A stretch of 11,760 nucleotides of DNA from a virus (IMGVR_UViG_2737471850_000002), one strand, 5' to 3'. Positions 9,455-11,065 are shown, numbered from the stretch's first letter. A program made the numbers and translations. The notes: a model not told the origin generated them from the letters alone.

Positions 9455-11065
9455 ATGAAAGGGAAATCTGCATTAACTCTTCTGCTCGCTGGTATATTTT
9501 CGTGCGGCACATGCCAGGCGACAGGGGCAGAAGTGACGAGTGAATCTGTATTTAACATTCTTAATTCCACGGGGGCAGCAACAGATAAAAGTTATTTATC
9601 GTTAAATCCAGATAAGTATCCTAATTATCGTCTTCTGATTCACTCAGCCAAATTACAAAATGAAATAAAGAGCCACTATACCAAAGACGAAATTCAAGGA
9701 TTGCTAACATTAACAGAAAACACACGAAAGTTAACGTTGACGGAGAAACCCTGGGGAACGTTTATTCTTGCTTCTACTTTCGAAGATGACAAAACAGCGG
9801 CAGAAACCCACTATGATGCTGTCTGGTTGAGGGATAGTTTATGGGGCTATATGGCATTAGTATCAGATCAGGGAAATAGTGTAGCCGCAAAAAAGGTTCT
9901 GCTCACCCTGTGGGATTATATGTCTACGCCCGACCAGATTAAGCGGATGCAGGACGTCATTAGCAACCCAAAACGACTGGATGGAATTCCCGTGCAAATG
10001 AATGCTGTGCATATCCGATTTGACAGCAACTCCCCCGTGATGGCAGATGTGCAGGAAGAAGGCAAGCCGCAGCTGTGGAACCATAAACAAAATGATGCTT
10101 TAGGTCTTTACCTTGATCTCCTTATACAAGCAATCAACACTGGTACTATTAACGCTGAAGATTGGCAAAAAGGTGACCGATTAAAGTCGGTTGCGCTGCT
10201 GATTGCTTATCTGGATAAAGCCAATTTCTATGTTATGGAAGATTCCTGAGCATGGGAAGAAGATGCCCGATTAAACACATCTTCCGTTGCACTGGTGACC
10301 TCTGGACTGGAACGTTTGTCAAACCTACTCTCGAAGAAAGACTCTGTTTTTGTCTCTGATTTACTACGCGAAGCTAAAGTCAATGAACTGGATGAAACTC
10401 TTTCAACAACGAGGTTGAACCACCTCATAGATAAAGGTTATGAAAGAATAACGTTACAGCTTGATTTAGGGGGAGAATCCCCAGGTTATCTGGAAAAAGA
10501 TAAACATTACAGAGAAGCCGATGCGGCTTTACTTAATGTTATTTATCCTACAAATCTTTCAAAGATAAACACCAGAAGAAAAGAGCAAGTTCTAAAAATA
10601 GTTAAAAAACTAGCAGGTCCGTATGGTATAAAAAGATACGAGAAGGATAATTATCAGTCGGCAAATTTTTGGTTCAATGATATTAAAACCGATACCGATC
10701 AAAATTCGCATGCAAAAAGAGAAAAGAGCTTCATTCCATCAACAGAAGCAGAATGGTTTTTTGACTCATGGTATGCAAAATCAGCAGCAATTGTTTATAA
10801 AGAATCAAGAAAAGAAGAGTATTTGAATGACTCAGTACAATTTATGAATAGATCATTGGCCCAAATAACAGGCGAGAATATGATTGGTGCAAATGGCAGG
10901 AGCGTACCAGAAATGGCACTTCCCGAAAGCTATAACTATATCCACAAGTCGGGAACTTTGCATGAAGCGCCAAGCCCTATCATTCCGCTAAATTGGTCGA
11001 AAGCTTCAATGACTCTCATGTTGAAAGAGATGTCCAACCTTATCAATGATGAGGGAATTAAATAG
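9455..11065 (+). pseudogene. Secreted GH15-family glycoside hydrolase (glucoamylase/glucodextranase-like) interrupted by one in-frame TGA at 10247-10249; both halves are in the same frame
   Basis: N-terminal signal peptide (MKGKSALTLLLAGIFSCGTCQA); GH15-like motifs YDAVWLRDS, WEE directly after the TGA, G-x-x-RY-x-x-D-x-Y-x-x-x-N-x-WF (GIKRYEKDNYQSANFWF) and PESYNY...LNWSKAS; ORF track gives 9413..10249 and 10295..11065 in one frame separated only by the stop. Confidence 0.7.

Follow-up and report, generated by a model that had tools for sequence, protein, structure and literature searches.

The window, by which we mean the whole 11,760-nt stretch of DNA analysed here (IMGVR_UViG_2737471850_000002, catalogued as a virus), contains a disrupted gene, ygeQ/pkgA, with an integrative element on one side and degraded genes of the Escherichia coli ETT2 island on the other (Table 1). 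The integrative element lies at the tRNA-Gly gene glyU and occupies positions ~1-9281; its right end is marked by a short repeat of the glyU 3' end, which separates the integrated element from the ygeQ/ETT2 region, and no full tRNA is present in the window. AntA/AntB and DUF4747 genes are found in the element. The annotation of related copies elsewhere lists DUF927/primase, AntA/AntB, Icd-like, PerC, ProQ/FinO and DUF4747 genes, a set that we take to be typical of P4-like satellite elements. The combination of modules looks mosaic, because no complete genome in our collection of 5,426 complete E. coli genomes covers at least 80% of the window. At the cargo end of the island (window 7551-9043), the DUF4747 gene (297 aa, Pfam E 9.5e-98) and a 199-aa ORF that has no Pfam family overlap by a single base; this pair might be an accessory or defence module, and PADLOC gave no match on the ORFs of the upstream island. 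Window positions 1-2600, which include ORFs at 394-1107 and 1810-2301 with neither a Pfam nor a PADLOC match, are rare: at least 80% of this segment is covered in only two of the 5,426 genomes, and identity is 80-90% in most matches. In E. coli CRE1493 a different island, encoding DUF6971 and other genes, lies upstream of ygeQ, suggesting that glyU is a recurrent integration hotspot.

The disrupted gene is represented by two ORFs on the + strand (9413..10249 and 10295..11065), whose starts are 882 nt apart and which thus share one reading frame. Translation of positions 9455-11065 gives 537 codons with a single internal stop, and the residues around it read ...ANFYVMEDS*AWEEDARLNTSS... The preliminary description, which had recognized one gene split by one TGA, is borne out in this respect; it had also placed the stop exactly at the catalytic W-E-E motif and had the downstream piece begin with that motif. 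The stop is indeed adjacent to the motif, but the residue lost is the glycine two codons 5' of it (S-G-A-W-E-E) and not a residue of W-E-E itself. Likewise, the motif does lie 3' of the stop, but its codons precede the downstream ORF piece, falling inside the 45-nt gap between the TGA and position 10295, the first possible start of that ORF.

Table 1. Features of the ygeQ/pkgA locus and its flanks, in window coordinates.
Feature	Position	Strand	Basis
18-bp copy of the 3' end of tRNA-Gly (glyU)	9282..9299	+	Exact match to the last 18 nt of glyU in L001 (a complete E. coli chromosome)
N-terminal 264 codons of the disrupted gene	9455..10246	+	Translation; equals the K-12 YgeQ product WP_000676919.1, 'putative lipoprotein YgeQ'
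Predicted signal peptide MKGKSALTLLLAGIFSCGTCQA with lipobox-like G-I-F-S-C; Cys17 at 9503-9505	9455..9520	+	Read directly off the sequence
Premature TGA, G-to-T at 10247; ancestral codon GGA (Gly265)	10247..10249	+	GGA alleles, 39 homologues, 61-mer counts
C-terminal 271 codons and stop, in frame with the N-terminal part	10250..11065	+	Corresponds to K-12 ygeP (b2862, pseudogene)
Codons W267-E268-E269, 3' of the stop and so untranslated; E268 is the predicted general acid	10253..10261	+	Invariant in 39/39 homologues
E491 codon in an invariant P-E-S motif; candidate general base	10925..10927	+	Invariant in 39/39 homologues
Degraded ETT2 genes: eivJ remnant (~11078-11197), epaO start (from ~11157)	11078..11760	+	Coordinates carried over from L001

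Over positions 9300-11200 the window matches many complete E. coli chromosomes with 100% identity; the PGAP calls in those chromosomes are 'ygeQ: protein YgeQ', a 'hypothetical protein', a remnant of eivJ (SpaN family) and a YscQ/HrcQ gene with a frameshift. The N-terminal part of our gene corresponds to the ygeQ call, as in L001, and the 'hypothetical protein' corresponds to positions 10316-11065 of the C-terminal half. In K-12 MG1655 the same region adjoins glyU and is annotated as ygeQ (b2863, 'putative lipoprotein YgeQ', 795 nt) and, after it, ygeP (b2862, a pseudogene). The window shares with K-12 the identical TGA, 100% identity over the first 1137 nt and the position after glyU. K-12 differs in having IS2H at nt 1137, where it interrupts the downstream part, and in having lost most of ETT2; the window keeps the whole downstream part through to the natural stop codon and has an integrative element that separates glyU from the gene.

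This gene has been described before under another name. In the ETT2 literature, ECs3736/pkgA is the homologue of B2863 ('phosphorylase kinase and glucoamylase') and ECs3737 is the homologue of B2862; pkgA, which lies at one end of ETT2, is given as encoding a putative glucoamylase and, as attributed to Pallen 2003 where that study is cited (PMC3977695, PMC2808357), a speculated ETT2 effector. The genome paper on enteroaggregative strain 042 repeats the description for EC042_3075, in an ETT2 without obvious ablating mutations (PMC2808357). EC042_3075 and ECs3736-ECs3737 are the same gene at the same locus as the gene in the window. [quoted passage not shown]

The intact protein is called only a 'putative glucoamylase' in the literature, and the preliminary description had assigned it to glycoside hydrolase family 15 (GH15). 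At the level of sequence this relationship is remote. The Pfam GH15 family, PF00723, matches residues 94-401 with 21.0 bits (E 1.7e-4), where the gathering score is 22, and a precomputed PF00723 match is present in about half of the homologues; no NCBIfam model matched at its cut-off, the best being a 15-bit local match to TIGR01577. When the family profile was searched against PDB sequences, only phosphorylase kinase alpha and beta were recovered (E 6e-7 and 2e-5), in alignments that pass through the motifs W-x-R-D, H-x-Q-x-D-A and D-x-G-x-W-E, and no characterized GH15 enzyme was among the matches even at E <= 10. By sequence, PkgA/YgeQ is thus nearer to the glucoamylase-like domains of animal phosphorylase kinase alpha and beta, which to our knowledge are not established as active hydrolases, than to any characterized GH15 enzyme.

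The assignment to GH15 rests mainly on fold and motifs. An AlphaFold model built from a 39-sequence alignment has a pLDDT of 90.1 and a pTM of 0.90, with disorder confined to the signal peptide (pLDDT below 50 at residues 1-5 and 15-24). A Foldseek search of the PDB ranks phosphorylase kinase beta and alpha first (E 1e-10), and further matches include the 'Glycosidase' entries 5z3a/7c24, yeast and fungal glucoamylases, a dextran dextrinase and a glucodextranase. The top 22 matches all have a probability of 1.00 (including 5z3a/7c24, 1ayx, 9ju0, 6fhw, 1gah, 2vn4 and 3eqa); as far as they can be assigned, we take all of them to be GH15 or GH15-like, with the exception of 2p0v, which is presumably GH125-like. 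We assume that 5z3a/7c24 is the GH15 isomaltose glucohydrolase; its listing shows the catalytic mutants E178A and E335A. The predicted model of the intact ancestral protein has the (alpha/alpha)6-barrel of the solved GH15 structures, a fold that it shares with both GH15 enzymes and the phosphorylase kinase domains (structural matches E 1e-10 to 1e-5). However, identity is only 11-18%, the TM-score is ~0.5 and the Pfam score falls slightly under threshold, and the intact protein lacks both a starch-binding domain and the N-terminal beta-sandwich of bacterial glucoamylases. On the modelled structure, the intact protein is clearly a GH15-like (alpha/alpha)6-barrel at the level of fold, and remotely so at the level of sequence, in keeping with the earlier assignment.

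Sequence blocks common to YgeQ/PkgA and GH15 are W-x-R-D-S, Q-N-D, G-x-W-E-E and R-Y-x-x-D-x-Y...N-x-W. The block G-x-W-E-E includes W267-E268-E269, in which the general-acid glutamate is predicted to reside, and W267-E268 aligns to the W-E-(R) of phosphorylase kinase alpha and beta. Alignment with hhalign to an approximate sequence of the A. niger glucoamylase places W-E-E on W178-E179-E180, albeit weakly (E 0.009), and also aligns W-x-R-D-S and R-Y...N-x-W; the probabilities of the alignments are low (4.5% and 10.8%). E268 is therefore likely to be the general acid, as judged from these alignments. The general base of the A. niger glucoamylase is E400. In the alignment to the C-terminal region of this glucoamylase sequence, R-Y-x-x-D-x-Y...N-x-W is matched and E491 does not fall on the known base; E491 lies ~45 residues from the C terminus, which we take to be similar to the position of the base in GH15 enzymes, and we consider it a candidate for this role.

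The N terminus resembles a Sec signal with a lipobox, and many homologues have a cysteine at the equivalent place of the alignment. The intact 536-aa product would thus probably be exported as a lipoprotein, which agrees with the earlier prediction of a secreted enzyme. In the PkgA/YgeQ family as a whole (homologues P0002-P0120), ~65 positions are invariant across phyla, and the members are mostly secreted or lipoproteins. We found no conserved gene neighbourhood in the distant homologues that could serve as a clue to the substrate.

Comparison with orthologues, proposed in the preliminary description as a means of identifying the ancestral codon, places GGA at the position of the TGA in the intact alleles of LD26-1, IAI39 and AHB5 (L002, L004, L005). 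LD26-1 is the closest intact allele fetched, with 99.5% identity over the gene and eight differences, including position 10247; the intact alleles at this locus are 97-99.5% identical in DNA. We searched the complete-genome collection for exact 61-mers centred on codon 265. The TGA 61-mer is found in 945 genomes, including K-12 MG1655 and NEB 5-alpha, and the GGA 61-mer in 1,657, so that at least this number of E. coli genomes carries GGA; most other carriers deviate at flanking polymorphisms, and those sampled are annotated with an intact 'glycoside hydrolase family 15 protein'. The gene is absent from ~1,440 of the 5,426 genomes. TGA was seen only in the K-12-type allele group, a clade that makes up ~17% of complete E. 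coli genomes, and glycine is encoded in all other alleles examined.

Outside E. coli, an alignment of 39 homologues with 38-75% identity shows no variation at G265, W267, E268, E269 or E491, and the conservation of Gly265 spans E. albertii and Yersinia out to the Elusimicrobiota and Bifidobacterium. The homologues in the protein database include those from E. albertii (76% identity) and Yersinia enterocolitica (60%), and those from Commensalibacter, Elusimicrobiota, Planctomycetota, Synergistaceae, Clostridiales, Bifidobacterium and Bdellovibrionales have ~40-55% identity. Since GGA is present in other lineages and Gly265 is invariant, TGA is a derived state that arose by a G-to-T transversion; the stop thus occupies a codon that is sense, and conserved, in the orthologues. 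The alleles examined point to one origin of the TGA inside one clade. Relative to IAI39 there are 21 synonymous and ~10 amino-acid changes (the ratio is an estimate), as would fit purifying selection on the intact gene in the past. The sampled TGA alleles are 99.9-100% alike, and their identity is therefore uninformative about selection.

These counts also bear on whether the TGA could be a sequencing or assembly error, in which case the true codon would be GGA and the gene intact. Such an error would require no more than a single base, the difference between TGA and a sense codon. However, the 945 genomes with the same 61-mer were assembled independently and come from many laboratories and platforms, and many of them match the entire 1611-nt allele of the window at 100% identity. 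We consider the chance that the stop is an error to be negligible.

The preliminary description had also raised stop-codon readthrough, in which a leaky or programmed UGA decoded by near-cognate tRNA-Trp or as selenocysteine would allow a functional full-length enzyme to be made wherever the downstream half is intact. Of the E. coli stop codons UGA is the most prone to readthrough, and RF2 of the K-12 lineage terminates less efficiently at it. In the window the 271 downstream codons are indeed free of stops and frameshifts, and a 7-bp hairpin is predicted at ~10259-10284, ~10 nt 3' of the stop; however, both the hairpin and the sequence immediately 3' of the stop are unchanged in the GGA allele of LD26-1, and the predicted fold of positions 10230-10320 (91 nt) has a z-score of 0.00, with 94 of 200 shuffled sequences at least as stable. 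A scan of positions 9200-11300 against Rfam gave no match at E <= 1. These two results give no sign of a SECIS-like RNA element directly downstream of the stop, and we reject selenocysteine insertion on them. The nucleotide that follows the stop is G, and the UGA contexts with weak termination are UGA-C and UGA-A, not UGA-G. Nor is the stop conserved among orthologues: all other lineages have GGA, and a derived TGA at an invariant glycine is no conserved recoding signal. Tryptophan inserted here would, moreover, sit at the invariant glycine, two residues from the catalytic motif. Readthrough maintained for a functional enzyme is accordingly very improbable. We attach equally little weight to a weaker version, in which a few percent of readthrough, probably with tryptophan, would supply a small amount of full-length PkgA and make the allele hypomorphic instead of null.

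Selection for a readthrough product would also be unexpected in view of what has happened to the rest of the gene. The statement that everything else is intact holds for the copy in the window, but not for the lineage to which it belongs. In an evenly spaced sample of 14 TGA-type sequences, five retain the full length, five others stop short at nt 1137 and the remaining four have an interruption at nt 1027, such that ~9 of the 14 (about two thirds) carry additional lesions by which the downstream half is lost or interrupted. The interruption at nt 1027 is an IS421 insertion found in a large subgroup (e.g., E. coli CRE1493, L014:5028-6360), and the truncation at nt 1137, the K-12 type, is due to IS2H (K-12 MG1655, L006:8362-9692). 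Other 100%-identical alleles bear insertions or truncations by IS421, IS1A, IS3, IS2 or ISKpn26. The ETT2 genes beside the TGA-type allele are themselves remnants or frameshifted (eivJ and epaO, respectively a remnant and a frameshifted gene by PGAP), and both the secondary lesions in the lineage and the decaying neighbourhood are features of relaxed constraint.

The gene has also been broken elsewhere in the species. Many lineages keep an intact pkgA, whereas the O157:H7 TX 265-1 allele (L003:3001-4606) retains GGA and is frameshifted by a 5-bp deletion at ~nt 559-563, a lesion that is independent of the TGA and belongs to a different lineage. This deletion explains the split into ECs3736/pkgA and ECs3737 in strain Sakai. 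In BL21-type genomes only the first 535 nt of the gene are present.

It is also conceivable that the 264-aa YgeQ fragment, or two separately made halves, has been kept functional, either as a lipoprotein with a new function or as a split enzyme. The annotation would accommodate this, as K-12 still lists ygeQ as a CDS and PGAP calls a second CDS at 10316-11065, and the N-terminal piece retains the signal peptide; the fragment could in principle be made in K-12. However, by predicted secondary structure its end falls midway through the (alpha/alpha)6 barrel. For the downstream half, the only available starts are TTG or GTG, with no evident ribosome-binding site, and IS elements often destroy this half within the same lineage. 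The homologues outside E. coli in the protein database are full-length single proteins of ~500-600 aa, with lengths of 500-560 aa found in E. albertii, Yersinia and many further taxa, and therefore the two halves are not independent genes; none of the 120 homologues listed outside the lineage has a two-gene arrangement, all being single or partial polypeptides. A retained function of the fragment or of the separate halves thus seems highly doubtful.

The location of a GH15-like gene beside T3SS genes, which had been remarked on as unusual, was already published in 2003; the gene is called pkgA there, and its product is speculated, as the citing papers report it, to be an ETT2 effector. Among the loci examined, the linkage of the gene to ETT2 is seen only in Escherichia; T3SS genes were not found near the homologues of Yersinia enterocolitica, Commensalibacter, Bifidobacterium or GCA_027485695.1, and these loci have no neighbourhood in common. 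Because the protein has a Sec/lipobox-type N terminus and its homologues occur without an adjacent T3SS, a role of PkgA as a T3SS effector is unlikely on the sequence evidence, and the adjacency looks like island cargo.

Immediately 3' of the gene there is no more than a 120-nt eivJ remnant, followed by epaO. Their coordinates were carried over from L001, which is 100% identical to the window over 9300-11200 and whose annotation runs past that stretch; no long ORFs are present in 11078-11760. A ghoT-like gene and at least eivF and sctC (eivG), which are present in O157:H7 and E. albertii, are missing from the window, and, judging from the published order of ETT2 genes, most of eivJ would be part of the deletion. 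The TGA lineage shares this ETT2 deletion isoform with the closest GGA allele, that of LD26-1.

We are highly confident that the gene in the window is a lineage-specific nonsense pseudogene, the phylogroup-A/K-12-type allele of ygeQ/pkgA at the glyU end of the acquired ETT2 island. In this lineage a single G-to-T transversion at position 10247 converted the GGA codon of the invariant Gly265 to TGA. Translation would then stop after 264 residues, ahead of E268, E491 and the C-terminal half of the barrel. Since the stop precedes both glutamates and about half of the barrel helices, the truncated product could presumably not be an active glycosidase. The pseudogene is fixed in its lineage and is one case of the mutational attrition of ETT2. 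The preliminary description had considered a very recent nonsense pseudogene; the pseudogene stands, but 'very recent' needs qualification for an allele carried by a clade of this size.

The split of ygeQ/pkgA is already known and has been in the K-12 reference, as ygeQ and ygeP, since that genome was first sequenced, and the decay of ETT2 is a textbook example of the attrition of a pathogenicity island; in this sense the finding is an ordinary one. Our analysis pins the lesion to one G-to-T change at an invariant glycine and gives its frequency among the complete genomes (945 with TGA versus at least 1,657 with GGA, of 5,426). The 'protein YgeQ' and 'hypothetical protein' annotated by PGAP are accordingly the two halves of one dead gene. 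Beyond E. coli, the PkgA family is widespread and highly conserved, and its Sec/lipoprotein signal and its occurrence in bacteria lacking a T3SS argue against the effector role guessed at in the literature, as that proposal is cited.
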